Below are positions 1,468 to 26,104 of a stretch of DNA of 64,000 nucleotides, one piece after another. The notes beneath the pieces are model-generated. The model saw only the letters and a list, made by a program, of their open reading frames with translations. It was not told where the DNA came from and ran no database searches. Source of the stretch: an uncultured Bacilli bacterium (lineage in GTDB: Bacteria; Bacillota_I; Bacilli_A; RFN20; CAG-631); assembly GCA_947599835.1 (NCBI GenBank), contig CANQFQ010000005.1, positions 1 through 64,000 of the forward strand, in the 5' to 3' direction. Within the stretch, counting starts at the first letter, position 1. Every line of letters starts with the position of its first letter. The position numbers and the translations under genes are program-made.

Positions 1468-1471
1468 TCAT

Positions 1472-4417: not shown

Positions 4418-4433
4418 TATTGTCATTTTTTTT
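4404..4433 (+). terminator. rho-independent terminator after the dapL-like gene
   Basis: Perfect 8-bp stem atgacaat/attgtcat spanning the stop codon, followed by T8. Confidence 0.5.
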
Positions 4434-4454
4434 GAAAAATGGTACAATCAAAAC

Positions 4455-4640
4455 GCAATGAAACGAAGAAGTACTATCTAAATTCTTTATAGAGAGTCAT
4501 CGCTTGCTGGAAGATGATAAGAATATTTAGGAAATTAATCGTGGAGCAACAAGTTTTAATATAAAGGGCATGCTAAATGCATGAACTAAGGTGGTACCGC
4601 GCAATTTAGCGTCCTTAGATAAAGGGCGCTTTTTATTTAA
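4455..4640 (+). promoter_or_regulatory. T-box riboswitch leader controlling leuS
   Basis: Conserved T-box sequence 'AAGGTGGTACCGCG' at 4587-4600, then a terminator hairpin agcgtcc...gggcgct + TTTTT at 4606-4636. An AGAGA-containing stem I region lies upstream. An extended -10 'TGgTACAAT' sits at 4440-4448. Confidence 0.75.
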
Positions 4641-4656
4641 TAAGAGGTGAAATAGA

Positions 4657-7059: not shown

Positions 7060-7061
7060 CA

Positions 7062-7715
7062 ATGGAACATTTACCTTTTCAAGCCAGTCCTTATTGGGTT
7101 GAGCATTTAATGGAATTTTATAAAGAAAACTTAGGACAAGTGGATGTTGTTTTTTTGGGAGATTCTAATACACAATTATTTCCGATTCATGAATACTTTA
7201 AAGATTTTACTTGTGCAAATCGTGGAATTCAAGGAGATTTATCTGTAGGTATCAATATCACCATGGAAGAGCGTGTATGTAAATTGCAACCTAAAGTGTT
7301 ATATTTAATGATTGGTGGAAATGATATTGCTTATTGGGGATACAATGATGACATTACCATTCAAAATATACATGACGGCTTAAATTATGTTAGACAACTC
7401 AATAAAGGATGTAAAATTATTTTATGCAGCGTAGCGCCTTGTTGTTATTATCAAGCCAAACATATTGTAAATGACCAAAATATTTATCGACCAAAACATC
7501 GTATTTTAGAGTTAAACCAAAAAATTAAACAATATGCTGAGGCACACGACGATATTACGTTTTTTGATTTACACGCTTTGGTTCGTGATGAAAATAATTC
7601 ATTACCTTTAGATTATACGATAGATGGTTTGCATTTAAGTAAAAAAGCTTATGATATCATTGCAGCAGCATTACATCCAATCATTCTCTCTTTGCTTAAA
7701 GAAAATAAATCATAA
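7062..7715 (+). CDS. SGNH/GDSL-family hydrolase
   Basis: GDSL block 'VVFLGDSNT' near the N-terminus and a 'DGLH' catalytic block near the C-terminus. Confidence 0.6.
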   Translation: MEHLPFQASPYWVEHLMEFYKENLGQVDVVFLGDSNTQLFPIHEYFKDFTCANRGIQGDLSVGINITMEERVCKLQPKVLYLMIGGNDIAYWGYNDDITIQNIHDGLNYVRQLNKGCKIILCSVAPCCYYQAKHIVNDQNIYRPKHRILELNQKIKQYAEAHDDITFFDLHALVRDENNSLPLDYTIDGLHLSKKAYDIIAAALHPIILSLLKENKS

Positions 7716-7761
7716 AAAAAATATGGGTTTCACAATCCATATTTTTTTATCTTATTTGAAT

Positions 7762-8193
7762 TTATTCGTCATCCTCTTCTGCATCCACTAAATCATCGAA
7801 TTCATCATATGTTTTAGGTTTTTCATCTTCTGTATCATCTTCAAGATTATACATCATATCACGATCATTTTCTTTTTCTTCAATTGAATCATCCGATAAA
7901 TCATATTCATCATCGGTTTCTTCATCATCTTGATAAATTTCATTCATATCGATGTGGACTCTTTCATAAGGAACACGTTCACGTAAATCCCACTTATTTT
8001 CACCTACATTGACAAAACGACCATCAATCGTTATATTTGTATAGAAAAATGAAATTAACGTATCTATTTCTTCTTGTGATGCCACTTGTAATTGTTCTAA
8101 TACTCGATCCCATAAATCATAAAATAACATTTCTTTTCCATTTGCTTTCATAATTTCATAAGCGATGTCTGTCATTGATTCTTTTCCTATCAT
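7762..8193 (-). CDS. rpoE: DNA-directed RNA polymerase delta subunit
   Basis: N-terminal HARE-HTH-like region 'FYTNITIDGRFVNVGENKWDLRERVPYE' closely resembles Bacillus RpoE. The C-terminal half is a highly acidic D/E-rich tail. Confidence 0.7.
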   Translation of the reverse strand: MIGKESMTDIAYEIMKANGKEMLFYDLWDRVLEQLQVASQEEIDTLISFFYTNITIDGRFVNVGENKWDLRERVPYERVHIDMNEIYQDDEETDDEYDLSDDSIEEKENDRDMMYNLEDDTEDEKPKTYDEFDDLVDAEEDDE

Positions 8194-8211
8194 AATTTTC
8201 CCTCTTTTTCT

Positions 8212-9843
8212 TTACATTTGATTTAAGGCTTCTACGCCTATTAATTCTAAACCATTTTTGATCACAATTCTAGTAATTTTTACAAGCATTAACCGTTGCT
8301 TGCTAGTTTCCATATCTTCTTCATCTATTACCTTACATTCATTATAGAATGCATGGAAATATTGTGCAAGTGTATATAAATAATTTGTCAGCTTATATGG
8401 AGACATCGTTAAAGCCGCATCTAAAACAACTTTTTCATACAAACTAATGTGCTTTAAGAGTTGTATTTCTTTTCCATGAGTTAATTTTGAACTTTCACAA
8501 AGAAATTCAATCTTTCTATCTGCGGCAGTATTTAATATGGATACACATCGAGCATGCGCATATTCAATATAATATAATGGATTTTCATTACTTTTCTTTA
8601 CCGCATCATCAATATTTAAATCCATATGCGTTGCTATACTTTTACTTGCAAAGGAATACCGCGTAGCATCGACACCAATTTCATCACAAAGATCTTTTAA
8701 AGTATACGCTTTTCCAGTACGTTTGGACATTTTTACTTCTTTTCCATCCTTCATTAAACGAACCATTTGATGAATGATGACTTGGATTTGTTCTTTATGA
8801 TATCCTAAGGCTTCAATAGCGGCTTCTAATCTTTTAATATAACCATGATGATCGGCACCTAAAATATCGACTAAATAATCAAATCCGCGTTCTAATTTAT
8901 ATCGATGATAGGCAATATCGGGTAAGAGGTAAGTATAACTACCATCTGATTTTTGAAGCACCCGATCTTTATCATCTTCAAAGGCAGTGGTTTTAAACCA
9001 TGTTGCTCCATCTTTTTGATAAATGTATCCTTTTTTATCAAGATAAGGAATGATTTCATCTACCCAGCCTTTTTGATAAAGCATTCTTTCACTGGTAAAC
9101 ACATCAAATTTAACCCTAAATTGTTCGAGAACTTTAATGATTTTATCTAATTCTGTTTGAATACCAATTTCTTTAAAATCATCCAATGGTCGATTCAATA
9201 AACGATCTTGATATTTTTCTTTTAATGTATTGGCAATGGCAATAATATCTTGTCCATGATATCCATCATCTGGAAAATCAACATGAATTCCAAGTGCTTG
9301 TTGATATCGAACATAGATAGATTTAGCTAAATTATGAATTTGATTTCCTGCATCATTTACATAATATTCACGTGTTACTTGAAATCCGACCGCAGTAAGT
9401 AAACGACAAATACAATCTCCCACAGCGGCTTGACGGGCATGGCCTAAATGCAAATCTCCGGTTGGATTTGCCGAAACAAATTCAACATCATATTTTTGAT
9501 TTTGCCCATAATTGCATGTCCCAAATCGATCGTTTTCTTGTTCAATTTTGCGCATTAAATCTTTAAATGAATTTTGAGATACAAAAAAGTTTAAAAAACC
9601 TGGTGCTGCAATTTCAATTTTATTAATTTCCGTATTTTTTTTTTCAAATTGTTCCAAAATCAATTTTGCAATTTCCATTGGGTTTCTTTTTACCATACGA
9701 GCAAGTTGCATTGCAATATTACTTGCATAATCACCTTTTGAAGTATCTTTTGGAATTTCTACCACAAAATCCACATCAGTAGGTAAATTGGCCCTAACTA
9801 ATGCTTTTTGTAATTCGCTTTTTATAACTTCATTGATGTTCAT
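8212..9843 (-). CDS. argS: arginine--tRNA ligase
   Basis: Class I 'HLGHAR' motif, a C-terminal anticodon-binding DALR-like region and 543 aa. Confidence 0.9.
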   Translation of the reverse strand: MNINEVIKSELQKALVRANLPTDVDFVVEIPKDTSKGDYASNIAMQLARMVKRNPMEIAKLILEQFEKKNTEINKIEIAAPGFLNFFVSQNSFKDLMRKIEQENDRFGTCNYGQNQKYDVEFVSANPTGDLHLGHARQAAVGDCICRLLTAVGFQVTREYYVNDAGNQIHNLAKSIYVRYQQALGIHVDFPDDGYHGQDIIAIANTLKEKYQDRLLNRPLDDFKEIGIQTELDKIIKVLEQFRVKFDVFTSERMLYQKGWVDEIIPYLDKKGYIYQKDGATWFKTTAFEDDKDRVLQKSDGSYTYLLPDIAYHRYKLERGFDYLVDILGADHHGYIKRLEAAIEALGYHKEQIQVIIHQMVRLMKDGKEVKMSKRTGKAYTLKDLCDEIGVDATRYSFASKSIATHMDLNIDDAVKKSNENPLYYIEYAHARCVSILNTAADRKIEFLCESSKLTHGKEIQLLKHISLYEKVVLDAALTMSPYKLTNYLYTLAQYFHAFYNECKVIDEEDMETSKQRLMLVKITRIVIKNGLELIGVEALNQM

Positions 9844-9942
9844 TTTATCACCATACCTATAAAATCTTTATTATTATAACAAAATAATAATAAAATTTGT
9901 ATTATTTTTTTACATAGGGGAAAACTTTTTTTAGGTGAGCAT

Positions 9943-11799
9943 ATGAAAAAAGGAATAAAAATCATATTAATACTTGTTTTTATCGACATTTTTATTGGTT
10001 TATACTATTCAATTTGCTTTATTTTACCCAAAATTTCGCTTTATAGAAATAATGATATTACCGTTTATGATAGTCAAAATGAAATCATCTTTGAAACACA
10101 TCACGATATCCCCGGACATTATGTTGGATTAAATGAGATGAGTCCTTATCTTCCGGTTGCTTTTATTGCGGCTGAAGATCAAAATTTTTATCACCATTAC
10201 GGTTATGATTTGAAAGGCATGTTAAGAGCAACTTGGAATACGCTTTTCAAAGGAAAGCCACAAGGAGGCTCAACCATTACGCAACAACTAGCAAGAAGTT
10301 TATTTTTAACGAATGAAAAAAGTTTTTCTAGAAAAATACATGAAGCCATCCTTACTGCTCGTATCGAGACTAATTATTCAAAAAAGCAAATATTAGAACA
10401 ATATTTAAATACGATTTATTTGGGCCATGATTTATATGGAGTCAGTGTGGGTGCGCAATATTATTTCAATAAGGATTGTAAAAATTTAACATTAGATGAA
10501 GCGGCATTATTAGCGGGTATTGCAAATGCTCCAGCTTATAATGATCCAAATCTTCATTATGATAATGCCATTTATCGACGCAATTATGTTTTAAAAAATT
10601 TATATCATTCTAAAATCATTACCACAAGGGAATATAACGAAAATATCCATAAAACAACACAAATTCATCTTTGTGAACCCGCATTTACGGATGCCAATTT
10701 ATTTTATCATCGTGCCATTGTAAAAGAATTAGAAGAATTAAACTTATATAATAAAAAAAATCTTGCCATAGGTTTAGATGTTTATGTTTCATTACAACAA
10801 AATATTTCTCAACAATTATATCAAATTTTGAAAAAACATCAGCCCAATACAAACACACAAGTGGCTGTGCTGATTCTCAAGCCCTACACGAATCAAATTC
10901 TTGCCATGGCGGGAAGCTTTGATGTTCATGATGAATTTAATCGTTCGATGATGGCCCTTCGTCCCATTGGTTCAACGATAAAGCCTATGATCTATTATAT
11001 GGCCTTGGACTATGGCTTAACCCCGGTAAGTAAATTTATGAGTGAAGAAACTCTTTTTTATATCGATGGGATTGGGGAATATGCACCAAAAAATAGTCAT
11101 CATCAATATCCAAATAAAAAAATAACGATGATTGAAGCTTTAGCGGTCAGTGATAATATTTATGCTACGAAAACTTTATTGTTTATTGGCAGTAAAAATT
11201 TAAATCAATTTTTAAATTTATTTGGCATAAACTACGATAAATCCGTTCCTTCTATGGCATTAGGGGTCAGCGAGATGTCCTTGTTAGATCTAGCTAGTAT
11301 TTACAACACTTTTGCCTCAGAAGGAAAATATTATCAACCCCATTTCATTCAAAAAGTTGTCGATAAAAAAGGAAAAGTTTTATATAAGGCCCCTACCAAA
11401 GGAAAACAAATACTCAATCCAACATCGACGCTGATTTTAAATCAATTATTGCGAGCTCCTTTTGATGAAAAAGCTTATGGTTATGCAAAACCGACCTTAC
11501 TAAATTATCAACCAAAAGCGATCTTTGCGGCAAAAACCGGGACAACGAATTCAGATGCCTATACCATTGGATATAATCCAAATTACACGATTGCGATTTG
11601 GGTGGGTAAAGATGACAATTCACCCCTCTATGAAACGCAGTTATCTAAAACGATTTTTGTGGATTTGGCAAATCAAATTACTTCAGATAATCAATTACAA
11701 ACATGGTATGATCATGGATATTTTATCTATTCTGCCAAAATCAATCCTTTAACGGGAAATAAAGACGCAAATGGCTCTTTTTATTGGTTTAAAAGTTAA
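9943..11799 (+). CDS. class A penicillin-binding protein (transglycosylase/transpeptidase)
   Basis: N-terminal TM anchor. GT51 motifs 'FIAAEDQNFYHHYG' and 'QGGSTITQQLAR'. Transpeptidase motifs 'STIKP', 'SDN' and 'KTGT'. Confidence 0.8.
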   Translation: MKKGIKIILILVFIDIFIGLYYSICFILPKISLYRNNDITVYDSQNEIIFETHHDIPGHYVGLNEMSPYLPVAFIAAEDQNFYHHYGYDLKGMLRATWNTLFKGKPQGGSTITQQLARSLFLTNEKSFSRKIHEAILTARIETNYSKKQILEQYLNTIYLGHDLYGVSVGAQYYFNKDCKNLTLDEAALLAGIANAPAYNDPNLHYDNAIYRRNYVLKNLYHSKIITTREYNENIHKTTQIHLCEPAFTDANLFYHRAIVKELEELNLYNKKNLAIGLDVYVSLQQNISQQLYQILKKHQPNTNTQVAVLILKPYTNQILAMAGSFDVHDEFNRSMMALRPIGSTIKPMIYYMALDYGLTPVSKFMSEETLFYIDGIGEYAPKNSHHQYPNKKITMIEALAVSDNIYATKTLLFIGSKNLNQFLNLFGINYDKSVPSMALGVSEMSLLDLASIYNTFASEGKYYQPHFIQKVVDKKGKVLYKAPTKGKQILNPTSTLILNQLLRAPFDEKAYGYAKPTLLNYQPKAIFAAKTGTTNSDAYTIGYNPNYTIAIWVGKDDNSPLYETQLSKTIFVDLANQITSDNQLQTWYDHGYFIYSAKINPLTGNKDANGSFYWFKS

Positions 11800-11866
11800 T
11801 ATTCATATTGACTTTTAGTTTAAGAATAATCATAATTATTTTGTAATTTATAAAGGTAGTGAGTTC

Positions 11867-12829
11867 ATGTCTAAAGATACAATTGTAAATAGCAAATTTT
11901 ATCATCGAATGATGATGATACGTCATAATAAAGTTTTTGATTGGATTTTTTCAATTGTTTGCGTTGCCATTTGTGCAGCTTTTTATGCCCTTGCTGTCAA
12001 AGTTTTTGTATCTCCAAAACGATTACTTGCTGGAGGCGTTTCTGGGATTTCTTTACTTTTAGGTCGATTTATTGAAGCCACGGGTTGGTTAAAATTTAGT
12101 GAAACCAATATTGCAGGGGTTTTAACTTTAATATTTAATATTCCATTGTTAATTCTTGCTTGGAAAAAATTAAATTTAAAATTTGCAATTCTATCTTCTG
12201 TGCATGTTCTTACCGTTTCTACTTTAGTTGCTTTTTTACCTAATAATATCAGTGAAATCATCTTTCAAAAAGCTTGGAATGATATCGGCATTCTAGATGC
12301 AGCATTATTTGCTGGAGCTATTGTTGGCATTTCAACTGGTATTTGTTTTCATCTTGGTGGAAGTAGTGGGGGCATGGATATCGTAGCTTACTATTTTAGT
12401 AGTCGAAAGCAAATTACCGTCGGTAAATTAAATTCGATTATCAATGCTTCCATCATTATTTTTAGTATTCTTTTATTCCCTAAAGATGGTATTGATAAAG
12501 CATTATATACCTTACTTTATATCTTTACAAATTCTTTAACTTTGGATGCTGTATTTAATAGAAATAAGAAAAACATGATTCATATTATTACCAATAATGG
12601 GGAAGCCGTTTCTAAATTTGTTATGGCAAATTTTTATCGAGGAGTGACGCAAATTGATGCCAAGGGGGCTTATACTGGAAACCATAAAGATTTCTTATAT
12701 GTTGTCGCTACAGCCTTTGAATCCTTAGAAATTGCTAAAGAAGTTAAAAAATTTGATCCCGATTGCTTTATCACAATTATTCCTGTAAGTAAAGTTTATG
12801 GTCGTTTTATTAACAAAGATATTCATTAA
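11867..12829 (+). CDS. YitT-family membrane protein (DUF161 + DUF2179)
   Basis: Multi-TM N-terminal domain with 'GGSSGGMD' and a C-terminal soluble domain, matching the YitT architecture. Confidence 0.55.
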   Translation: MSKDTIVNSKFYHRMMMIRHNKVFDWIFSIVCVAICAAFYALAVKVFVSPKRLLAGGVSGISLLLGRFIEATGWLKFSETNIAGVLTLIFNIPLLILAWKKLNLKFAILSSVHVLTVSTLVAFLPNNISEIIFQKAWNDIGILDAALFAGAIVGISTGICFHLGGSSGGMDIVAYYFSSRKQITVGKLNSIINASIIIFSILLFPKDGIDKALYTLLYIFTNSLTLDAVFNRNKKNMIHIITNNGEAVSKFVMANFYRGVTQIDAKGAYTGNHKDFLYVVATAFESLEIAKEVKKFDPDCFITIIPVSKVYGRFINKDIH

Positions 12830-12838
12830 AGAACTACT

Positions 12839-13549
12839 ATGAATTACTCGAAATTAATGGATTATTATCACACGCTTTCAAGTGGGGAAAAATTTATACA
12901 ATTTAGTTATAAAATGATACCAACCCATTTAAAAATAATGGGGGTTAAAACGCCTTGGATAAAAAAAACGGCAAAAACCATTGCTAAACTTGATAAAGAT
13001 TGTATTTTTACTTATCCGTTGAATCAATATTATGAAATTAATTATACTTTTTTATTGGTTTTAATTTATCAAAAACAAGCGATTGAAGAAAAATTGGCCA
13101 CCTTATGGAAATATTTAGATTATCTAGATAATTGGGCCATTTGTGATGGTTGTGTTTTAGCTTTTCATTTGGATAATAAAGATAAAGATCTTGCTTATCA
13201 TTGGATTGTTAAATGTTTACAAACAAATAAAGAATTTGTCGTTCGATTTGGATTAGTGATGTTATTGAAGTTTTATGTTAATCATGAATATATGGATAAA
13301 ATTTTTAATTTACTAAAAAACTTGAATTATAGCGATTATTATGTAAGTATGGGCTGTGCTTGGTTACTCAGTGTTTGCTATTTAAATTTTGCAGATGCGG
13401 TCGAAAAATTTCTTTTTATCGATAAAATATTACCTCATAATGTAACGTGTATGACGATTCAAAAATGCCTTGATTCTTATCGAGTACCAAAAGATAGAAA
13501 AAATAGCCTTAAAAAGTTAAAAAAATTATACTTGAATCAAGAATTATAA
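12839..13549 (+). CDS. DNA alkylation repair protein (AlkD/AlkC-like HEAT-repeat family)
   Basis: Helical-repeat protein carrying the 'NWAICDGC' motif characteristic of the DNA_alkylation family. Confidence 0.45.
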   Translation: MNYSKLMDYYHTLSSGEKFIQFSYKMIPTHLKIMGVKTPWIKKTAKTIAKLDKDCIFTYPLNQYYEINYTFLLVLIYQKQAIEEKLATLWKYLDYLDNWAICDGCVLAFHLDNKDKDLAYHWIVKCLQTNKEFVVRFGLVMLLKFYVNHEYMDKIFNLLKNLNYSDYYVSMGCAWLLSVCYLNFADAVEKFLFIDKILPHNVTCMTIQKCLDSYRVPKDRKNSLKKLKKLYLNQEL

Positions 13550-13581
13550 AATGATAATATTATTTTGCTTAAAGCAAAAAT

Positions 13582-13655
13582 AGGGACATAGTTAAATGGC
13601 TTAACAATGGTCTCCAAAACCATCAATGTGGGTTCGATTCCTACTGTCCCTGCCA
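13582..13655 (+). tRNA. trnW: tRNA-Trp (anticodon CCA)
   Basis: 7-bp acceptor stem AGGGACA/TGTCCCT, T-loop GGTTCGATTCC, anticodon loop CTCCAAA and encoded 3' CCA. Confidence 0.85.
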
Positions 13656-13762
13656 TCGACGAATAAAGCCCGATTTTTAGGGCTTTTTTATTTTTCATTA
13701 TAGTCATTTAAAAACAGATCTTAGGTAATGTAACAAAGCATTTTTCTAAACCCTTTTTGATG
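13655..13762 (+). repeat. direct repeat, left copy (~107 bp, ~95% identical to 16562-16668)
   Basis: I aligned it by eye with the copy starting at 16562. Both copies begin 'atcgacgaataaagcc' and run through 'ccctttttgatg'. The left copy starts exactly at the tRNA-Trp 3' end. Confidence 0.8.
13665..13690 (+). terminator. rho-independent terminator downstream of tRNA-Trp
   Basis: Stem aaagccc/gggcttt with an 8-nt loop followed by a T-run. Confidence 0.5.
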
Positions 13763-14031
13763 CGTTAAATCATGTCCGTTTCCTCGGTGGCTACAAAATA
13801 TCTTAGTTTTAAGACATTTTCAAATACTAACACTTAAGACATTATCATAGGCTAATCATATGACAAACCATATTTTTTTGTTGTGAATTTGCATTATTCG
13901 ATATTTTTTAATATAATTTAAATAGACAATGTTTTAAATTAAAATCGGAGGTTACAATTTTATTTTGGTAATCATATCATTGTTTATACTTTCTTTATTA
14001 AAAACAAAATATAATTTAGGAGACTTTAGCA

Positions 14032-14469
14032 ATGTATAAAAAAATATCAGTATTTACATTATTTATATCAATGATTTTTCTTTTTTCGGCTTGTACTAGT
14101 AATACTAATTCCAAATATTCTAGTAGTATTGGCGATCGTTTGGATGATAAACCAATGTTGGTCGCTTCAATTCCACAAGAATTTATGTGTTTTGGAAAGA
14201 TTTATATCGATAATAATGAGGAAATTGAAACTTTAGGATCCGGAACAATGATAGGATACTTGGTTAATGAAAATGAATTAGATTTTTGGAAAAGTAAGGA
14301 TAATAACAATAATCTTGTTTACGCTACAGGTAATGATGTGTTTAGAAAAACGGATGAAGGTCAAGAAAACTTAAAAGACAGGTATGAATTATATTCCTTA
14401 GATGAAACGTATGATTGCTTGGCAATAAAAGAATATACAGGTAAGTTTAAGCTGTACTCTAAACAATGA
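14032..14469 (+). CDS. small lipoprotein (145 aa)
   Basis: Signal peptide with lipobox 'LFSAC' (Cys21). Preceded by the RBS 'aggagac'. Confidence 0.5.
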   Translation: MYKKISVFTLFISMIFLFSACTSNTNSKYSSSIGDRLDDKPMLVASIPQEFMCFGKIYIDNNEEIETLGSGTMIGYLVNENELDFWKSKDNNNNLVYATGNDVFRKTDEGQENLKDRYELYSLDETYDCLAIKEYTGKFKLYSKQ

Positions 14470-14488
14470 AAAAAACAAAAATTTAATT

Positions 14489-14791
14489 ATGTTATGTATT
14501 CTTTTGTTATCAATATTTACTATGAATTTAACGGTTAGTAACTATGATACGAAAAGAAATTCCGCTGATACTATTAACCAATTGGAATTCGTGGCTGAAG
14601 AGTTAAGTGATGTACAAGAAAGAATTGATATAACTAATGGTTTTAGCAAATTGGCTGTTAGCCATAGTTATGATGATTTTACATACAAAGCAGCCAATAT
14701 GATTAATTATAATTTATCTACAAAAAATATTTCTTATGAAAATTTCAATATGGATTCATATCAGAATAGACATAATAGTGTAAATATTTAA
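14489..14791 (+). CDS. hypothetical small protein (100 aa)
   Basis: ORF with a hydrophobic N-terminus located inside the islet. No recognisable motif. Confidence 0.3.
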   Translation: MLCILLLSIFTMNLTVSNYDTKRNSADTINQLEFVAEELSDVQERIDITNGFSKLAVSHSYDDFTYKAANMINYNLSTKNISYENFNMDSYQNRHNSVNI

Positions 14792-14830
14792 GATACAACT
14801 TCTACTTATTCGAATGTTAATTTAGATAAT

Positions 14831-16037
14831 TTGGACTATAAAAATATTGAAAAAAGTGAATCTTATATGCCAGAAGATATACAATTTGCGATTTCTCCAA
14901 CTTCAATAATTGGATCTGTTAATAGAACTCAAGTTTTACAAACTAGAGATTGGCCTTATCGTGGCATAGTGAAAATGTATATGACCTTTAACAATGTGTT
15001 AAATCAAATTGATGGAAAATATCATGATCGCATTTTTATTGGGACTGGATTTATAGAAGGACCAAATTTAATGGTCACCACTGAACACTGTGGATATAAT
15101 GATGTAACTAATGATGAAAATTACGAAGATGGCATATCAAATCCTAGATTTCCCGATAAGATTGAAGTGTATGCAGGAATAAATGGTTATAGCGAACGTT
15201 CAACATCCTATATTTATTATGCAGAAGTTTCTGTAATTAATATTCAAAAAGAATATTTTAAAACTACTTCGACAAATTATGATTGGTGTGCTATGCAACT
15301 AGACCGTGACTTGGGAGTACAAACTGGTTATTATGGTAAAATCAGTAATTTGTATGAGAGTAAGGCATCTGTCTACTCTTATGGATATCCAGGAGATAAA
15401 CCAACTAATACAATGTGGGAAACTCATGGGACACTTATTGAAAAAAAATGATTATAAATATAGTTATGATTTTGACACTTATGGCGGTCAAAGTGGTTCA
15501 CCTGTTTTCATGACCGCTACTGATGGAGCTATTTATGTGTGTGGAATACACACGTCTGGTAGTTCATCTGCTAATTATGCAACTAGAATAAATTCATTTA
15601 TTTTTCATTATTTAAATAGCTTTGTGTCTTATCATAATTATGAGCATCTTGCTGCAACAATTGTCCCAACTGATTATGGCTTTGCTGATGCTTATCCAAC
15701 TGATGACTATACAAAAACAAATTATGCCACACATACTTTATCTTCTGGATTCCAATTTCAAACAAGGAGATATCGTACTGGTTATATTCAAAATGAATAT
15801 ATTGTTATGTCGCCATTTAGAAATGGCATTACAGAAGCGTTTATCGAATATAAATTTGATGTACCAGTAACAAAAATTGAGGTTGATTTAGCACATTGGA
15901 GATCTTTATCTAATGAGTGGACGTATAGTGATTATCTCAGTGCTGTTCTTAGAATACCTGATGGTAATGGATATAATAATGTATCGATTTATTATCTTCA
16001 TCAACTAATTTTCCAACAGATAGAACTAATCCGATGA
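14831..16037 (+). pseudogene. V8/glutamyl-endopeptidase-like S1B serine protease, interrupted by a +1 frameshift in an A8 tract (15441-15448)
   Basis: Catalytic His in 'LMVTTEHCG', Asp in 'NYDWCAMQLD' and Ser in 'GGQSGSPVF' are split across two overlapping frames (14831-15451 and 15306-16037). Deleting one A restores the continuous protein '...THGTLIEKNDYKYSYDFDTYGGQSGSPVF...'. Confidence 0.65.
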
Positions 16038-16279
16038 CCTACACAATTGAATTTTCAACACCAGTTTATATATTCCAATTCTATATGCAAAGTAAACGTA
16101 TAAACACAAATGATAATAATCGGGGGAGAATTTGTATTGGCAATCTAAATATTTTTACTAAAGAGGGGTGGTATTGATTCTTAAATTGTTTTAATAAAAT
16201 ATTAGTTCAATTTTTGTTGAAATAGTTAATGAATTTTATAAAAAAGCGTTAAATATAGCATTAATAATTCAAAATATTT

Positions 16280-16310
16280 ACTCACTCATTAAATTGGGTG
16301 AGTTTTTTTA
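16280..16310 (+). terminator. rho-independent terminator at the end of the islet genes
   Basis: Stem actcac/gtgagt followed by T7. Confidence 0.4.
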
Positions 16311-16561
16311 TTATTTAAAATTTGTTGAATATAATACTAGTCATAAATAACCAATAAACGTCCTTAGAGCGAAGGTAGTTAGAATAATGGTTTTAGAAGA
16401 AAAGGCAAAAGAAATTGATTTAAATCAAAAGAACATTAAAGTTAAAAACTTTTTATAATTAAACTATTATAATCTAAAATCGTATTTGAGACGTTTTAGA
16501 TTATGTATTATCGCGTTTTAGTTTTTTAAAAAAATTTGTATTATTTGCGTTTTCATTAGAT

Positions 16562-16668
16562 ATCGACGAATAAAGCCTGATTTTTAGGTTTTTTTATTTT
16601 TCATTATAGTCATTTAAAAACAGATTTTAGGTAATGTAACAAGGCATTTTTCTAAACCCTTTTTGATG
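16562..16668 (+). repeat. direct repeat, right copy (partner of 13655-13762)
   Basis: ~95% identical to the left copy. The terminator hairpin inside it is degenerated (cct..aggttt). Confidence 0.8.
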
Positions 16669-16920
16669 TATTAATTTAGAGTGGAGACGCAAAGATACAC
16701 TTTTGATTTTACTTAGTTTTTGAAATTTAAATTTTAATTAAACCTTATAAAATAAATGCTGCGTTCCATTTATTTTCATTTTTATCGATTTTACCGATAA
16801 AAATGAACATAAATTAGAGGATCAAAAACATTTTTTACACTCATTTTTAATCGTTTTATTCATATATCATTTTTTAGCTTTTGAAATTTTATTCTTAAAA
16901 TTTTGAATTTATGATTTTAT

Positions 16921-16955
16921 AAAAATTGTGCAGCCACCAGCTGCACAATTTCAAT
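16921..16955 (-). terminator. bidirectional rho-independent terminator ending the minus-strand nine-gene operon
   Basis: 9-bp perfect stem ttgtgcagc/gctgcacaa with a 5-nt loop. T-rich tracts flank it on both strands. Confidence 0.55.
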
Positions 16956-17078
16956 TTTAAAATATTCTCGATAAAATTTAATCCTGTTTTAAAGATGAAA
17001 ATTCTTTATGAATTTCAAAAGATAAATTATTAAAAGTACATTAAATAAAATTAAAAGCAACCTTTTTAATTTATTATA

Positions 17079-19805
17079 TTACTTTAACAATAGAACTGCT
17101 AACCAAATTACAGCAATTATCGAAATTATAAAATAAATTATATAAAAAATTTTAAATTCAATATTAACTTCGTCAACACCATCTTCAACATTACATCTTA
17201 CCATGTAATATCCTCTTATAGTATTAGGAATACAACCTACAAAAAAAATCGTAAGAGGTAGAAGAGATTCGTTGTCAATCTTGCATACGAGCCAAACAAT
17301 CATAACATCTAATGCCAAAGTAAAAATAATATCAAATATCACATTAAAAACATTTATTGTTTTTATTTTGGCTCTTGTTTTTCTATCTTGTACATTTACT
17401 ACTTTTCCAAATTGATCTTCTAATTCTCTATCGTTACAAAATTCAATCACGTATCTCATTTTGCCATATAAAGAATGCTTATTTACACTTGCAGGCAGTT
17501 GACTCACTGTTTTAACTTTGTAATATTCAAATAATTCATTTAAATACATATCAAATAATTTCTTACATAAATTTAATGAATTTTTTTTAATAATTTCTAC
17601 GCAATTGTCCTTAAATAAAACTGATTTATCAATAAATACATTATCTAATATTTCTTGTTTAATTTGACATTCAGCTAAAAATTCTTTTACTTTTTTCAAT
17701 TTATCAGGTAAAAATTGAAAAATGTTTTCCGAATTAGGATGTTTTTCAAAATAACAAGTTGTCGCAGAAATGTAATTCTCATCTTCAAAAAGTACACTAG
17801 CATCATCTGCTAAAGACAAATAATTACTATATTTTCGATTAATCATGTATCGAACGATATATGCATTATAATTATATTTATCAATTGATAATAACATATT
17901 ATTATATTTTGTTAATAATTCCCATTTATCTTGACAATTAGAAATTAACAATTTTTTATCTATAAAAGTTTCAATATATTCAATAAATAAATCGTTTTCG
18001 TAACTAGGAATTAACCCTAAAATAAAATCAAAAAGAGGAATAGCTTTAGTAATATCATCATTAGGCACACTTACAATTACATTAAATAACAGATTTTCAG
18101 CTTCTTCATTGAAACTATATGAAAAAAGTTCATTTTCAATCGTTTTGAAATTATTTTGATTAAAGAAATAAGCAGATTTTTGCTTATGATCAAGCAAATT
18201 ATGAACATATAAAAAGTTATTTAACAAAGCAATACTGCATGAAGGATCCACTTCTAATATATTTTTATAATATTTGCTGGAAACAGATAATGACGGAAAT
18301 AAACTAGCAAAGGTTATATTCATATCAATATATTTTTTTGTATCATCTATAGTTTTAATTAATGAATCAAAAAGTTGTGTGTCACAGGTTTCTTTTGCAT
18401 GAGCGTACATTATATTTGTTAATTCATCTATTTTTTTATCGTCTGATTCAGATAAAGTGATATATTCTTCATAGCATATTCTATCTTGTGTATTGTAAAC
18501 TCTCATATAGAGCAAATTATAATATTTACTTCTTTCCTCAAAATTAGAAGTGGCAAGTGCTTTTTCAAAATAATCAATGTAGCCAATAGAACTACTGACA
18601 AGAGTAAAGGTTTTTTCACTATCAATTGCATTTGATGCTAAGAACAATAGCCAATAAACTTTCCCAACATTTGGATTATTCTTAATGAATTCGTTTGCAA
18701 AACGAATGGCTAAATCATATTTTTTAGAAGTTAAAAAATCTTCTATCATTTTTATTTTCGATGTATCAGAAGCGGTTACTTTAGATAATGCATTATTGCT
18801 AGTATCAATATTTCTTTTTTTGATAACTTGTTTAATGGTATCTTTTTTACTAACTTTTACTTTTGAATAATCCTTTCTATCAATATGAAAATCAATGTCG
18901 TTGACTTTGTATTTTTCAATAAATGATTTAATGATATCAAATGCATATGCATTATTATATTGAACACCTTGAATTTTTCCATTTATTTTTGGCAGCTTTT
19001 CAATAATTTGGTTGGTAAACACAATGGTAACGCTATCATTTTCTTTCGATTTATCATTAATCATTTGAATAAATCTAGTATATTCGTTTTGAACCCAAGG
19101 AGTTCTTAAATAATTTTCATCAAGACAAACGATTAACATACATTTCGCTGAGTATAAAGCATATAAAATTCTGGCTTCATATTTTGCACCAGCTTGATTT
19201 TTAATTTCAACTTCAGAATAGAAAGGCTTATAGCCCTCTTCTTTTAATCGGTAATATAAATCTTGAGCAATGCGACTATCTTCAGTAAATCCTTTGTTTT
19301 CATCACGAACTTTAACACAAATAAAACAATCATAAGATAATCCACTTTGTTTTAAATTATAAAATTCATCTTTAATTTCGTCTATTTCCACTGCTTTTTC
19401 TTGATAAATTTTTCTTTGTTCAACATTAGCATATTTTAAAGCGAGTTGATAATCCTTATCAGCAATGAATTTTTTGTTATTAATATCGTGACATATAGGT
19501 TGAAGATGTTTGTTGGCTACATCTTTTAAATATTGTATTTTATGACTTGCTAAGGCCATCCCAAAATAGGCTTCGGGTTCTGTTTCATCTTCTTCAAGAA
19601 CATTTTTAAAAGTTTCATAGGCATTATCAAATTCACACAAATCTAAATGATGTTTAGCTAATTGAATATCATTTAGATTTTCTTTTTTTATTGGTAATGT
19701 ATATGAATTGAAACATCTTTTACATTGAATTACACCATTTTTAGCCGTTGAAATATCTAAGGGTTCCCCACATGTTTCACACGTAAATTTAATTAATCCA
19801 TCCAT
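17079..19805 (-). CDS. zinc-ribbon + TIR-like domain protein with long alpha-helical region and C-terminal transmembrane tail anchor
   Basis: N-terminal C-x2-C...C-x2-C ribbon 'CETCG...CKRC'. Residues ~150-260 'YDCFICVKV...IAQDLYYRLKEEGYKPFYSE...CMLIVCLDENYLRTPWVQNEY' match the TIR fold pattern (compare plant 'DVFLSYRG...LSENYASSSWCLDEL'). The last ~25 aa 'FYIIYFIISIIAVIWLAVLLL' form a hydrophobic helix. Confidence 0.6.
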   Translation of the reverse strand: MDGLIKFTCETCGEPLDISTAKNGVIQCKRCFNSYTLPIKKENLNDIQLAKHHLDLCEFDNAYETFKNVLEEDETEPEAYFGMALASHKIQYLKDVANKHLQPICHDINNKKFIADKDYQLALKYANVEQRKIYQEKAVEIDEIKDEFYNLKQSGLSYDCFICVKVRDENKGFTEDSRIAQDLYYRLKEEGYKPFYSEVEIKNQAGAKYEARILYALYSAKCMLIVCLDENYLRTPWVQNEYTRFIQMINDKSKENDSVTIVFTNQIIEKLPKINGKIQGVQYNNAYAFDIIKSFIEKYKVNDIDFHIDRKDYSKVKVSKKDTIKQVIKKRNIDTSNNALSKVTASDTSKIKMIEDFLTSKKYDLAIRFANEFIKNNPNVGKVYWLLFLASNAIDSEKTFTLVSSSIGYIDYFEKALATSNFEERSKYYNLLYMRVYNTQDRICYEEYITLSESDDKKIDELTNIMYAHAKETCDTQLFDSLIKTIDDTKKYIDMNITFASLFPSLSVSSKYYKNILEVDPSCSIALLNNFLYVHNLLDHKQKSAYFFNQNNFKTIENELFSYSFNEEAENLLFNVIVSVPNDDITKAIPLFDFILGLIPSYENDLFIEYIETFIDKKLLISNCQDKWELLTKYNNMLLSIDKYNYNAYIVRYMINRKYSNYLSLADDASVLFEDENYISATTCYFEKHPNSENIFQFLPDKLKKVKEFLAECQIKQEILDNVFIDKSVLFKDNCVEIIKKNSLNLCKKLFDMYLNELFEYYKVKTVSQLPASVNKHSLYGKMRYVIEFCNDRELEDQFGKVVNVQDRKTRAKIKTINVFNVIFDIIFTLALDVMIVWLVCKIDNESLLPLTIFFVGCIPNTIRGYYMVRCNVEDGVDEVNIEFKIFYIIYFIISIIAVIWLAVLLLK

Positions 19806-19826
19806 ATTATTTCTTCCTTTCGCAAG

Positions 19827-20570
19827 TTATTTTTTAATATTTACTTTACACTCTTCAATAAATTTTTGAATTGTGTTTGATGGGATTGCAAAATTCATAC
19901 CTTCGGCATCCGTTATTCCTGAAACTACCATGCCAATAACTTTTCCATTAGCATCGAACAATGGACCTCCTGAATTTCCACCATTAATAGCACAATCCGT
20001 CATTATTAAAGATTTTCCATTAACATTTCTTAATTTGTCACTAACAATACCTTCAGTGATACATGTTCCATACCCTAATGAATTACCAACAGCAAACACT
20101 TTTTGACCATTCTTTATTAAGTTTGAATCTGCAAAAGTTATATGATTTGTTTTCATTGATACATCCATTAATTTTAATAATGCAAGGTCTACACCAGACC
20201 CTCTACCCCCTTGATCATCGCCAATCGCAATCACTTTAGTTGTTATTTTTTTATTATTTAAAATAACAACAACTGTTTCTGCAATGTTGCTATTAAATGT
20301 GACAACATGGGTATTCGTAATTGCATATCCATCACTTGAAATCAAAAATCCTGAACCAGCAGCAGCTTCGCCATTACTCGATTGTGTAAAGATTTCTAAA
20401 ATGGCATCACAATTTTTTTCATAAACCATAGCGCCACTATCTAATTTTTCATTTTTAAATGATGGATTTTCATCATAATTATCTTTATCAATGGTGGAAC
20501 CACAAAAGTTACAAATATATTTATTATTAACTAGTTTCATTGTGCCACCACAAACTTTACAAATTGCCAT
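19827..20570 (-). CDS. zinc-ribbon + trypsin-like (HtrA/S1C-type) serine protease
   Basis: N-terminal 'CKVCGG...CNFCG' ribbon. Catalytic triad in 'TNTHVV', 'DLALLKL' and 'GNSGGPL'. No PDZ domain. Confidence 0.65.
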   Translation of the reverse strand: MAICKVCGGTMKLVNNKYICNFCGSTIDKDNYDENPSFKNEKLDSGAMVYEKNCDAILEIFTQSSNGEAAAGSGFLISSDGYAITNTHVVTFNSNIAETVVVILNNKKITTKVIAIGDDQGGRGSGVDLALLKLMDVSMKTNHITFADSNLIKNGQKVFAVGNSLGYGTCITEGIVSDKLRNVNGKSLIMTDCAINGGNSGGPLFDANGKVIGMVVSGITDAEGMNFAIPSNTIQKFIEECKVNIKK

Positions 20571-20591
20571 AACTCTTACTCCTTTAAAAAA

Positions 20592-23372
20592 TTATTTTTC
20601 ATTTTTATAATCCCAGATTAGTTGTGATTTATGACTCCCATACCACTGTTTATCCCAATTAGATGGAGTCAATCCCAAAAATGGTTTTTTGCGTTCTAAT
20701 TTAACAATTAAGGAACTAGGGCATAATGAAAATATATCATATCCAATTTTTGAAACACTACTTGGGATAACTATACTTTTTAAAGAATCGCAATTATAAA
20801 ATGCATGAGAACCTATGCTTGATAATTTACTATTTGATTCAAAATTAATAGTTTGTAATGAGAAGCAATTAGAAAATGCAGATTCTCCGATACTTGTTAC
20901 ACTACTTGGAATAACTATGTTGGCTAATGAACTACAAACATTAAATACAGTTTTTCCGATACTTGTTAATTTACTATTTGATTCAAAATTAACAATTTTT
21001 AATGATTTGCAATTAGAAAATGCAGATTCTCCGATACTTGTTACACTACTTGGAATAACTATGTTGGCTAATGAACTACAATCATTAAATACAGTTTTTC
21101 CGATACTTGTTAATTTACTATTTGATTCAAAATTAACAATTTTTAATGATTTGCAATTAGAAAATGCAGATTCTCCGATACTTGTTACACTACTTGGGAT
21201 AACTATACTTTTTAAAGAATCGCAATTATAAAATGCATGAGAACCTATGCTTGATAATTTACTATTTGATTCAAAATTAATAGTTTGTAATGATTCACAA
21301 TTACAAAATGCATATTCTCCGATACTTGTTACACTACTTGGGATAACTATGTTTGTTATTGAAGTACAATCCCTAAAAGCCTTTTTATCTATAACTGCCA
21401 CATCATATTGCTTTCCATTAATAGTAATTGTTGATGGAATGACTACATCATTTCCTAACTGACTTGTATATTTACTTATTACTGCTTTCCCTTCTATAAT
21501 TAAATAATGTATTCCTGCTTGCTCTAAATAATTATTATCATTGATTCCCCAGTAAACAGCTTGATTATCTGGATTCCAATCATTATCCCAACCTTCTGGT
21601 TTTGATAAAGCTGCACAATAGATTGTTAAAGAATAGCAATCGTCAAATACCTCGTATCTTATACTTGTTACACTACTTGGTATTACTATGCTTTCTAAAC
21701 AATAACAATTCACAAAAGCGCGTATTCCTATACTAGTAACATCATATTGTTTTCCATTAATAGTAATTTGTGATGGTATTACCACATCATTTTTTAATTT
21801 ATTTGTATGCCCAGTTACTACTGCTTTGTTATCTATAATTACATAAATTATTCCATTTTGTTCTAAAAAATTATTTTTATTAATTTCAAAATAAACAGGG
21901 TTATGACCATAATTACATATTTTATCCCAATCTCTAGGTTTTGATGTTACTTCACAATATATTGTTAATGTACTACAATCACGAAATACAGAATCTCCAA
22001 TACTTGTTACACTACTTGGTATAACTATACTTGGTAAATATTCACATTTAGAAAAAGCCTCATCACCAATTTCTTTGACGCTACTTGGTATAATTATACT
22101 TTCCAATTTGCTTTTTCTAAATGCATTTTCTTCAATATAAATAAGACTCTTAGGTAGTTCAACACTGGTAACATCAGCATTTTCAAATGCAGATTTTTCA
22201 ATTGTTTCAATAAAATCAGGAATTTTAACTACTGTATCATGACCAATATATTTGATTAATGAAGACCCTTTTATATTGAATTTTCCTTCATCATACATTG
22301 GTTTACTAGAATGACTATTAATAATTATTTGCTTTTGAGCATTACTTAATTCACTGATTTGCTCTTGCATTTTTTTAGTTGCATTTTCTTGCTCTTTATT
22401 TTTTTCTAATTCTTTTTGCTTTTGTTCTTCTTTTCTTTTTTTACTTTCTGGAGTGTGACTCTCTACATACTGAACTATTTTATCTAAGCAACTTAAAGTA
22501 TGACTTCTATCAATACCTTGAAGTTTTTGGTTTCTTCCCGGTATTTTTTCGATAACTTCTCTATTATATATAATGACAATACTATCTGTATCTTTAGTAT
22601 CCTCGTTAATCATTTGCAAAAAACGTGAATATTCATTTTTAACCCATTTCGTCCGTAGATATTCTTCTTTGGAACAGACAATTAACATACATTCACTTTC
22701 ATATAAAGCATATAAAATTCTTGCTTCATAATCTGCACCTGTCGCATTTCTTAATTCTCTTTCTGATAAAAATGGTCTATAGCCTTTGCCTTTTAATTCA
22801 TAATACAATTCATCGGCAAATTGATAATCCTCAGTTTTATTTTGTTGATTCTCATCACTAACTTTTACACAAATAAAACAATCATAGGCCAATCCACTTT
22901 CTTTTAATTGATAGAATTCTTGTTGAATTGTATCAATTTCAGATGCTTTTTCTAAATATATTTTCTTTTGATTTTCTGTTGCATATAAAGTGGCTTTTAA
23001 ATAATTGATATCATCACTCATTTTTTTATTATTAATTTCGTGACATATAGGTTGTAAACGATTGTTTACCTCATCTTTTAGATATTGTATTTTATGGGTT
23101 GCTAAAGCCATACCAAAATAGGCTTCGGGTTCTGTATTATCTTCTTCTAATACTTTATTAAATGAATCATAGGCTTTATCAAATTCACACAAATCTAATT
23201 GATTGTTTGCTATTTGTAGTAATGTTTTTGTATTATTACTAGCATTTTCTTTAGGTAAAGTAAAAATACTATGGCAATATTTACATTCAATTATACCATT
23301 ATGGGCATTAGTTACATCTAAAGTATTTCCACAATTTTTACATACAAAATCATTTAATTGTGCACTCATCAT
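20592..23372 (-). CDS. zinc-ribbon + TIR-like domain + coiled coil + BspA-type leucine-rich-repeat protein
   Basis: Paralog of 17079-19805 in its first ~270 aa ('CKNCG...CKYCH' ribbon, TIR-like 'YDCFICVKVSDEN...CMLIVCSKEEYLRTKWVKNEY'). Then a K/E-rich coiled coil. The C-terminal half is 'IVIPSSVTSIGESAFSNC' BspA-like LRR units. Confidence 0.6.
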   Translation of the reverse strand: MMSAQLNDFVCKNCGNTLDVTNAHNGIIECKYCHSIFTLPKENASNNTKTLLQIANNQLDLCEFDKAYDSFNKVLEEDNTEPEAYFGMALATHKIQYLKDEVNNRLQPICHEINNKKMSDDINYLKATLYATENQKKIYLEKASEIDTIQQEFYQLKESGLAYDCFICVKVSDENQQNKTEDYQFADELYYELKGKGYRPFLSERELRNATGADYEARILYALYESECMLIVCSKEEYLRTKWVKNEYSRFLQMINEDTKDTDSIVIIYNREVIEKIPGRNQKLQGIDRSHTLSCLDKIVQYVESHTPESKKRKEEQKQKELEKNKEQENATKKMQEQISELSNAQKQIIINSHSSKPMYDEGKFNIKGSSLIKYIGHDTVVKIPDFIETIEKSAFENADVTSVELPKSLIYIEENAFRKSKLESIIIPSSVKEIGDEAFSKCEYLPSIVIPSSVTSIGDSVFRDCSTLTIYCEVTSKPRDWDKICNYGHNPVYFEINKNNFLEQNGIIYVIIDNKAVVTGHTNKLKNDVVIPSQITINGKQYDVTSIGIRAFVNCYCLESIVIPSSVTSIRYEVFDDCYSLTIYCAALSKPEGWDNDWNPDNQAVYWGINDNNYLEQAGIHYLIIEGKAVISKYTSQLGNDVVIPSTITINGKQYDVAVIDKKAFRDCTSITNIVIPSSVTSIGEYAFCNCESLQTINFESNSKLSSIGSHAFYNCDSLKSIVIPSSVTSIGESAFSNCKSLKIVNFESNSKLTSIGKTVFNDCSSLANIVIPSSVTSIGESAFSNCKSLKIVNFESNSKLTSIGKTVFNVCSSLANIVIPSSVTSIGESAFSNCFSLQTINFESNSKLSSIGSHAFYNCDSLKSIVIPSSVSKIGYDIFSLCPSSLIVKLERKKPFLGLTPSNWDKQWYGSHKSQLIWDYKNEK
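20760..21310. repeat. near-perfect ~144-bp tandem DNA repeats inside the LRR coding region
   Basis: Units starting at 20878, 21022 and 21166 are essentially identical (48-aa unit 'NFESNSKLTSIGKTVFNDCSSLANIVIPSSVTSIGESAFSNCKSLKIV'). The flanking segments 20761-20877 and 21195-21310 are also mutually identical. Confidence 0.7.
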
Positions 23373-23389
23373 TTTTCCTCCCCTATGAA

Positions 23390-25462: not shown

Positions 25463-25531
25463 GATGTTATCCCCTTTAAAATTCTTTGTTATATTTCATT
25501 ATTTTAGGTATAAATAAAACGCAAAAAGAAA

Positions 25532-26104
25532 TTAGTTTCCCATTTTCTTTTTTAGTTCAGCTAATTCCTTTTCAATCATTGTGTCTGTCATATTATCTGA
25601 AGTAACTTCATTACCAATAAGGTGCTCTAATTCTTCTTTTTCCTCTGGTGATGAACTAGCATTTGTTTCAAATGCAGATGAAGTTTCTTCCATGAAGTTT
25701 TCCATTTGCGTTGCTTGAATTTCAGCACCAATCATGGCTTCAGAGAATTGTTTTTGAACTTTATCAAATTCTTTTTCTTTTGTCAGTTTTAACATATCTT
25801 TACTTAAAATACTCATTCCCTTTAGAAATTCTTTCGTCATTTGTGTCATATCTTTCATTTGCGAAGTAATTTCAAAATTTAATTTCATTTCATAAATTCT
25901 TCTTTGCTGAGTAATGACCATTTTAAGTCCAGAAATCGCTAAATTATATTGCGCAGTTAAACCTTTTTCTTTTGCTTGTTTTCCAGCATCAATATAGGTT
26001 TGCTTTTGCTTTTCTAACTGTTCGATTTGTTTATTCATCGCATTAATGGTTTGTTTTATTTGCATTCTTTTGGCAATTTCTTTTCTATGATTCATAGCTA
26101 GCAT
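25532..26104 (-). CDS. Snf7/ESCRT-III-family protein with C-terminal MIM1-like motif
   Basis: Helical hairpin pattern 'GLKMVITQQRRIYEMKLNFE...KEFLKGMSILSKDM...FDKVQKQFSEAM' matches the Snf7 core. Acidic linker. C-terminus 'DTMIEKELAELKKK' fits the MIM1 consensus (D/E)xxLxxRLxxL(K/R). Its start overlaps the upstream stop (TAATG). Confidence 0.55.
   Translation of the reverse strand: MLAMNHRKEIAKRMQIKQTINAMNKQIEQLEKQKQTYIDAGKQAKEKGLTAQYNLAISGLKMVITQQRRIYEMKLNFEITSQMKDMTQMTKEFLKGMSILSKDMLKLTKEKEFDKVQKQFSEAMIGAEIQATQMENFMEETSSAFETNASSSPEEKEELEHLIGNEVTSDNMTDTMIEKELAELKKKMGN

Follow-up and report, generated by a model that had tools for sequence, protein, structure and literature searches.

Described architectures and the islet beside tRNA-Trp

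The described systems closest to the locus considered here are the islands found at tRNA genes, the cis-mobilizable elements (CIMEs) and the morons of phages, a moron being a cargo unit, autonomous in its transcription, that lies inserted among the genes of a phage. In canonical tRNA islands, the gene is restored by the island and a displaced tRNA fragment is left (Islander definition, PMC4383910), and decayed integrative elements that retain their attachment sites, have lost their integration and transfer genes and can be mobilised in cis by a related element using the same site are known as CIMEs (reviewed in PMC5704250). The locus in question is a 2.9-kb segment, hereafter the islet, at the 3' flank of tRNA-Trp in the first 64,000 nt of contig CANQFQ010000005.1 (assembly GCA_947599835.1); this whole 64-kb stretch is called the window. 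Its host is an uncultured low-G+C Bacilli known as a metagenome-assembled genome (MAG), kin to Candidatus Caccosoma and to MAGs labelled "Anaeroplasmataceae". The islet is bounded by a direct repeat of the tRNA flank and holds a small lipoprotein gene and a broken gene for a V8-like protease. With roughly even confidence, it is read here as the decayed, integrase-less remnant of a phage-type integrative element, or as the cargo ("moron") cassette of such an element alone. Most likely it is an ordinary leftover of a decayed mobile element, not a new kind of system.

Like a canonical tRNA island, the islet has an intact tRNA at one end, a direct repeat at both ends, foreign cargo and a variable locus. 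It differs in having neither a displaced tRNA fragment, since its repeat overlaps the tRNA by 1 nt, nor a tyrosine integrase, and in that its 114-nt identity block consists of poorly conserved flank DNA. Two defining traits of a canonical tDNA island, the displaced tRNA fragment and the integrase, are missing. At best, the islet resembles the "asymmetric 3' end" sublocation (Williams 2002 classes, summarised in bioRxiv 10.1101/2020.11.02.365908). There is also a likeness to CIMEs, the islet being likewise short, devoid of an integrase, bounded by direct repeats and situated at a tRNA-linked hotspot with decayed cargo; integration and transfer genes are gone and only the lipoprotein gene and the protease pseudogene are left. 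However, its repeats are putative attachment (att) sites for which neither a cognate autonomous element nor an integrase was found, and they lie wholly in the 3' flank of the tRNA, not in the 3' end of the target gene. As for morons, the unit in the islet has a promoter-like site and a putative terminator of its own, both recognised by consensus scans, and its homologue, in the manner of a moron, is present in the prophage of L016 and lacking at that place in the related phage L035 (see below). In contrast to a moron, it stands alone in the chromosome without surrounding phage genes, and its main gene is dead. In functional terms, the locus looks CIME-like, or like a prophage-remnant islet carrying a moron, with genes that occur elsewhere as phage cargo.

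A direct repeat of the tRNA-Trp 3' flank

A first-pass annotation, made from the sequence alone, had pointed to a repeat of ~107 bp beginning at the 3' end of the tRNA gene. This repeat is real and slightly longer than first described (114 nt in copy 1 and 113 nt in copy 2), with 93.9% identity between the copies in a global alignment. Six substitutions, all of them transitions, and a 1-nt deletion in copy 2 account for the differences; over the first 108 nt, BLAST gives 95.4% identity. Copy 1 has its 5' boundary at the last A of the encoded CCA, which is the single nucleotide that it shares with tRNA-Trp, itself the only tRNA that ARAGORN finds in the window. Sub-patterns of 32 and 41 nt from the repeat occur exactly twice in the window, and in 0 of 100 shuffles, far more than chance would give. 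A search for repeats over the whole window shows that, among non-coding direct repeats of at least 50 nt, the 114-nt pair is unique; the remaining repeats of that length are coding and belong to LRR, TIR or GH16 paralogues. No third copy was found within the 64 kb. The edges are sharp, as the outer 260-400 nt on either side align at shuffle level, and a search of Rfam with the islet region returned no family besides the tRNA. Two simple candidates were tried and rejected: a degraded second tRNA ahead of copy 2, on account of 8 matches in 26 positions and of left flanks that align at shuffle level, and a simple tandem duplication, which would have doubled the genes too, although there is no second gene copy.

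Copy 1 contains the terminator hairpin of the tRNA (13665-13686; seven pairs, four of them G-C, followed by a run of T). The G deletion and a C-to-T change weaken this hairpin in copy 2, where it fails the terminator scan. The first 52 nt of the repeat, which comprise the terminator, are common to the genomes L005 (the nearest GTDB species genome) and L020; the rest of the repeat differs from both. At one position, both copies have a T where L005 and L020 have a G, so that each copy has the other as its closest relative; measured against L005, a single private change is found in copy 1 and two in copy 2. Either the duplication took place within the lineage, or the incoming DNA bore the flank of the same species. 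A divergence of ~6% between the copies fits the advanced decay of the protease gene described below.

It could be supposed that the arrangement is an ordinary native one, in which copy 2 arose when a terminator or regulatory module was duplicated, mobile DNA having no part in it, and in which resident chromosomal genes lie between the copies. Consistent with this, copy 1 is predicted by the scan to be a working terminator, the composition of the islet, including the G+C content at third codon positions (GC3), is core-like, and all four strain-level contigs that lie over the region show the junction from copy 1 to the lipoprotein gene (the tRNA itself is included in two of the four only, L001 and L004). 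Such a supposition is nevertheless very unlikely to hold, given that the hairpin of copy 2 is degraded, that no gene lies within 258 nt upstream of it, the protease unit ending at a terminator of its own, and that 62 nt past the tRNA terminator were duplicated as well. The genes concerned are, moreover, phage or island cargo elsewhere and are missing at the syntenic position in all five related species.

An intact lipoprotein gene and a broken protease gene

Between the two repeat copies lies one self-contained unit, composed of a promoter-like site, the lipoprotein gene, the protease pseudogene and a terminator (Table 1). An AGGAG ribosome-binding site is located 8 nt 5' of the ATG of the lipoprotein gene. 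The lipoprotein shows 64% identity to the partner of an intact protease in L018, and searches of Pfam, PHROG, NCBIfam and PADLOC assign it to no family. Its stop codon overlaps the ATG of the protease gene (14466) as ATGA. This small lipoprotein gene is the sole intact gene left in the islet.

The protease belongs to the V8/glutamyl endopeptidase family (S1B). Its intact homologues measure 566-578 aa and are 76-83% identical to the protein reconstructed from the window; one of them, P0001, matches glutamyl endopeptidases and V8 protease in the PDB with E ~1e-10, the His and the GGQSGSP Ser motif being conserved. Compared with the staphylococcal V8/glutamyl endopeptidase family, the present protease is much longer (~570 aa), with an N-terminal region of ~120 aa and a C-terminal domain of ~180 aa, its gene is translationally coupled to a lipoprotein gene by the ATGA overlap, and in the present genome it is inactivated. 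The start codon at 14466 (ATG) does not share the reading frame of the rest of the gene, a TAA stands in frame at 14792-14794, a frameshift occurs near 15429-15445 and a second one near 15980-15983. When P0001 is aligned to the window with tblastn, the match is split over three frames plus the stop. With a stop codon and at least two frameshifts, the window copy is not an intact catalytic gene. The "small ORF" (open reading frame; 14489-14791) and the "V8-like protease gene" that had been annotated separately are both fragments of this one broken gene, the small ORF being its N-terminal piece. The value of the present analysis lies mainly in correct annotation, which includes the replacement of a small ORF and a protease by one dead gene.

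The earlier suggestion of a decayed island is supported by the state of its cargo. Four independent ENA assemblies (L001-L004) jointly reproduce positions 12800-15509 at 99.9-100% identity, so the first two lesions of the protease gene (the stop at 14792 and the frameshift near 15440) are not assembly errors; the third (near 15980) lies beyond the stretch that these assemblies cover. Sequencing error was rejected as the cause of the first two lesions on the same agreement, and recoding of TGA was rejected because the stop is TAA. One of the four contigs (L002:1824-2163, ENA ERZ27060145) follows the window as far as 15467, a position within the protease pseudogene, and then passes into an unrelated vWA-like coding sequence that is absent from the window. 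Either the assembly, of low coverage, is chimeric, or the strain of that sample has undergone a further rearrangement.

No gene remnants, phage genes included, were detected by tblastx or blastn against the fetched loci in the 258-nt spacer between the terminator of the unit and copy 2, or in the 263 nt that follow copy 1. In the latter stretch, 5' of the promoter-like site, positions 13809-13855 hold two adjacent 22-nt copies, 25 nt apart, of TTAAGACATT.TCA..., a motif that may be a candidate operator.

Table 1. Positions of the islet components and of the adjoining features in the 64-kb window
Feature	Position	Strand	Basis or remark
tRNA-Trp (anticodon CCA, CCA end encoded)	13582-13655	+	ARAGORN; Rfam tRNA 63.6 bits
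Direct repeat copy 1, 114 nt, tRNA-Trp 3' flank	13655-13768	+	
Promoter-like site (TTTGCA, 18-nt spacer, TATAAT)	13888-13917	+	Consensus scan, pattern match only
Intact lipoprotein gene, 145 aa, lipobox FSAC	14032-14469	+	
V8-like secreted serine protease pseudogene (glutamyl-endopeptidase-like, S1B)	14466-16177	+	Three-frame translation; tblastn with P0001
Intrinsic terminator of the lipoprotein-protease unit	16280-16303	+	9-pair stem, then T run
Non-coding spacer inside the islet, 258 nt	16304-16561	.	tblastx, blastn, Rfam
Direct repeat copy 2, 113 nt	16562-16674	+	
Right flank	16675-17078	.	
First gene of the TIR/AAA/SPFH block	17079-19805	-	Pfam TIR_2; convergent with the islet, outside it

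Homologues of the islet genes in mobile contexts

Lipoprotein-protease pairs can be found in other uncultured Bacilli, with 75-82% identity at the DNA level. As this similarity is confined to positions 14139-16182 of the window, the flanks of the pair are unrelated. In L018 and L019, genes for a SHOCT protein and a large serine recombinase (PHROG integrase family phrog_95) come after the pair. In L016 and L017, a prophage has the pair at its left end, with an IS66 transposase fragment on one side and, on the other, an early/replication block encoding an exonuclease, a single-stranded DNA-binding protein, an HNH protein, PolA, a D5-type primase and a SNF2 helicase. The phage contig L035, which is 85-90% related to the prophage of L016, has other genes where the pair sits, which indicates that the pair is swappable cargo. 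In L015, the pair lies ~4 kb downstream of a tRNA-Glu, after KilA-N and HNH-like genes.

The protease alone is also present in phage genomes. In the IMG/VR phage contig L032, its gene lies between DNA methylase/ParB genes and those for the large terminase and the portal protein, and the ORF upstream of it has no detectable relation to the lipoprotein. Anaeroplasmataceae phage NatCom_34063, of the Ca. Heliusvirales, encodes a 732-aa homologue (L034, PV036447.1 55180-57378), whose gene comes directly after that for the holin and upstream of a serine recombinase gene. In these two phage genomes with the protease, the upstream partner is unrelated or lacking. The gene position in NatCom_34063 leaves room for a lysis-associated role of the V8-like protease family as a possibility. 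Heliusvirales have been reported to be almost all temperate (PMC11283538).

Because their homologues adjoin prophage or integrase genes or sit in phages, the genes of the islet count as moron-type cargo of phages or islands and not as part of the core. The mobile origin that had been proposed for the cargo thereby gains support from genomes other than the present one, and the lipoprotein/V8-like protease pair emerges as recurrent cargo beside prophage and integrase genes in poorly known gut Bacilli and their temperate phages.

The tRNA-Trp 3' flank as the end of conserved gene order

On its left side, the islet adjoins a conserved core whose final element is tRNA-Trp. The window is collinear with L005 from 1288 to 13706 (77-78% identity at the nucleotide level) and with L007 from 1829 to 12828 (73%), and collinearity with the nearest genomes halts just past the terminator of tRNA-Trp. 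In L005-L008, L020 and L022, tRNA-Trp follows a YitT or a DNA_alkylation gene. Beyond the tRNA, L006, L008 and L022 each have their own, different terminator and genes, and the DNA of L005 also differs from that of the window; none of the five related species has the islet genes at the syntenic position. Conserved gene order in this group of uncultured low-G+C gut Bacilli ends at the tRNA-Trp 3' flank, which marks the border between the conserved core and a strain-variable region containing a TIR-rich, defence-like block.

In L005, L020 and L007, 46-600 nt of sequence follow tRNA-Trp before the contig ends. A sibling strain, in which the flank protein P0253 is 99% identical, is represented by a 9,189-nt Logan contig carrying P0253, P0266, P0273 and P0280; the contig is almost fully covered by the genes from 4657 to 13549 and ends within ~300 nt of the DNA_alkylation gene. 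That contigs break here in four related genomes suggests that, across the clade, the site holds a repeat or differs between strains.

The repertoire of repair genes around the tRNA is variable as well. The DNA_alkylation repair gene (12839-13549), which separates YitT from tRNA-Trp, occurs in the window, in L005/L020 and in L022 but not in L006, L007 or L008; behind the tRNA, L008 carries MGMT-like and Tag-like repair genes instead.

Repeats of tRNA flanks at other loci

A comparable architecture can be found beside another tRNA gene. In L016, the 3' flank of tRNA-Thr (L016:4331-4406), from its terminator onward, forms a direct repeat of ~180 nt with ~82% identity between the copies (L016:4450-4629 and L016:9149-9327). 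The repeat brackets a 4.6-kb islet without an integrase, extending from PadR through an IS66 fragment, and the prophage that carries the lipoprotein-protease pair starts ~220 nt after the second copy. By analogy, this layout would be the pattern expected of tandem accretion at one attachment site, which has been described for CIMEs (PMC5704250). The L016 repeat was searched for in viral contigs and was not found there. In L015, a repeat of ~120 nt (L015:8318-8440 and L015:12450-12565; ~80% identity), with a conserved hairpin (terminator) stem and a divergent loop, flanks a helix-turn-helix regulator, a 109-aa ORF, a lipoprotein gene and an intact protease gene; the tRNA-Glu lies 2.7 kb upstream.

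Two loci, tRNA-Trp of the window and tRNA-Thr of L016, together with the similar terminator-hairpin repeat in L015, are the reason for considering a clade-specific mechanism that would insert cargo beside tRNA genes and duplicate 110-180 nt of the tRNA 3' flank, counted from the end of the tRNA or from its terminator, and not a part of the tRNA. The agent could be a lineage of integrases, or some non-canonical, trans-acting process, with the trailers or terminators of tRNAs as its target, and it would leave long repeats of target sequence around islets that lack an integrase. We regard such a mechanism as improbable. If a flank-only repeat architecture were true generally, island finders that seek displaced tRNA fragments would miss islets of this kind.

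Possible origin of the islet

If the islet is a decayed remnant of a phage-type integrative element, or the cargo cassette of one, its structure would have been built by recombination at the repeat, and we infer that a site-specific recombinase rather than RecA was responsible. Circular incoming DNA would have carried a block of ~114 bp matching the tRNA-Trp 3' flank, and recombination with the flank would have duplicated this block, copy 1 becoming attL-like and copy 2 attR-like. The recombinase gene and all other genes of the element would have been deleted later, with survival of the cargo unit at one end. The protease gene would then have gathered its stop codon and frameshifts, and copy 2 would have drifted (six transitions and one indel) and lost hairpin strength, copy 1 presumably continuing to serve as the terminator of the tRNA. 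At present, the islet can probably move only if a matching recombinase is supplied in trans.

A number of findings weigh against this scheme. The absence of an integrase noted at first pass holds over a wider region, since domain searches detected no integrase, recombinase or transposase in any ORF of 13.6-48 kb, nor does an integrase appear elsewhere in the window. The repeat overlaps the tRNA by one base, unlike the repeats of canonical tRNA islands, and no displaced piece of the tRNA precedes copy 2, where the adjoining 26 nt match the 3' end of the tRNA at 8 of 26 positions. Exact-pattern scans of IMG/VR and of JGI metagenome contigs gave no match to the window repeat. The earlier proposal that the repeats are att sites thus finds neither a displaced tRNA fragment, nor a cognate integrase, nor a phage attP match behind it. 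The integrases that adjoin the lipoprotein-protease module elsewhere are serine recombinases, enzymes whose exchange takes place within a core of 2 bp and which are not known to give rise to long repeats. No motif common to the repeat pairs of the window, L015 and L016 was found, so that each of the three pairs is taken to be local target DNA. In G+C content, dinucleotides, tetranucleotides, GC3 and codon usage, the islet lies inside the range of other parts of the window, and the stretch of 15-21 kb is only slightly more A+T-rich; a compositional contrast had been proposed at first pass as a check on a foreign origin, and its lack counts against that origin. Donors of similarly low G+C content would give no compositional signal. 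Finally, no strain with an empty site was found, as look-ups with exact proteins gave only short contigs of ~2.5x coverage with the same arrangement, and the polarity of the insertion is for this reason unproven.

Several of these points are shared by a serious rival, namely homology-driven or illegitimate insertion without a dedicated recombinase. A circularised fragment bearing the flank, which can be imagined to derive from a lysed or transduced sibling strain or prophage, would have entered by a RecA-type single crossover (Campbell-type integration); alternatively, a local segmental duplication would have occurred. The repeat is indeed local host sequence, its first 52 nt being common to the tRNA flank of the nearest species, and its two copies are mutual closest relatives. 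It shares no motif with the repeats of L015 or L016 and is therefore not a conserved element end, and neither an integrase (13.6-48 kb) nor an attP-like match (IMG/VR, JGI metagenomes) is at hand. A length of 114 nt is, furthermore, long for an att identity block and adequate for homologous recombination. Integration by RecA nevertheless requires an ad hoc circular intermediate and a homology that begins exactly at the end of the tRNA, and the architecture in L016, with a prophage coming after the bracketed islet beside tRNA-Thr, gives the impression that one site was used repeatedly. The variant with a local duplication meets the further difficulty that a simple tandem event would have copied the genes as well. 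Serious as it is, this explanation is on balance unlikely, and the decayed integrative element or cargo cassette is preferred.

The right flank and the wider window

To the right of copy 2, the region 17079-30004 is a defence-like gene block (17.1-30.0 kb). It encodes two TIR proteins, a trypsin-like protease, a double-AAA IetA-like ATPase, three unannotated ORFs, an SPFH/zinc-ribbon protein and a DUF4143 ATPase (PADLOC PDC-S01, E 5e-154). The best homologue of the first TIR protein is 38% identical, the source genome's own copy aside, and no TIR orthologue that would allow a comparison of the right flank was present among the homologues found. That a larger acquired region might extend to ~30 kb, as first proposed, is plausible in view of the end of synteny after tRNA-Trp and of TIR homologues with at most 38% identity beyond the own copy.

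It is conceivable that copy 2 came with this block. The TIR/AAA/SPFH region (16562 to ~30000) would once have stood directly after tRNA-Trp in a sibling strain and would have landed downstream of a resident lipoprotein-protease unit. The low identity of the best TIR homologue, the defence-like content of the block (IetA-like AAA, two TIR proteins, PDC-S01) and the fact that the DNA after tRNA-Trp differs in every relative agree with such a history, and the 6% divergence of the copies could equal the divergence between donor and recipient. However, it needs an illegitimate left junction exactly at the boundary of the tRNA end, it leaves unexplained why a unit of phage cargo sits between the copies, and neither a third copy nor a right-hand repeat is seen in the window. 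We consider that this history has a slim chance of being the true one.

The right flank itself contains a near-perfect palindrome of 47 nt (16768-16814; 20-nt arms, 95% complementary, 7-nt spacer), situated between copy 2 and the terminator hairpin of the TIR operon (~16926-16948, minus strand; assigned by sequence reading). Within the block, the three ORFs at 25532-27069, which had been labelled "ESCRT", have no Pfam match even at E <=1, and the label is without Pfam support. The two TIR genes share a coding repeat of ~350 nt in their N-terminal parts (19297-19664 and 22849-23216). Farther to the right, 30-48 kb is a beta-glucan utilisation locus.

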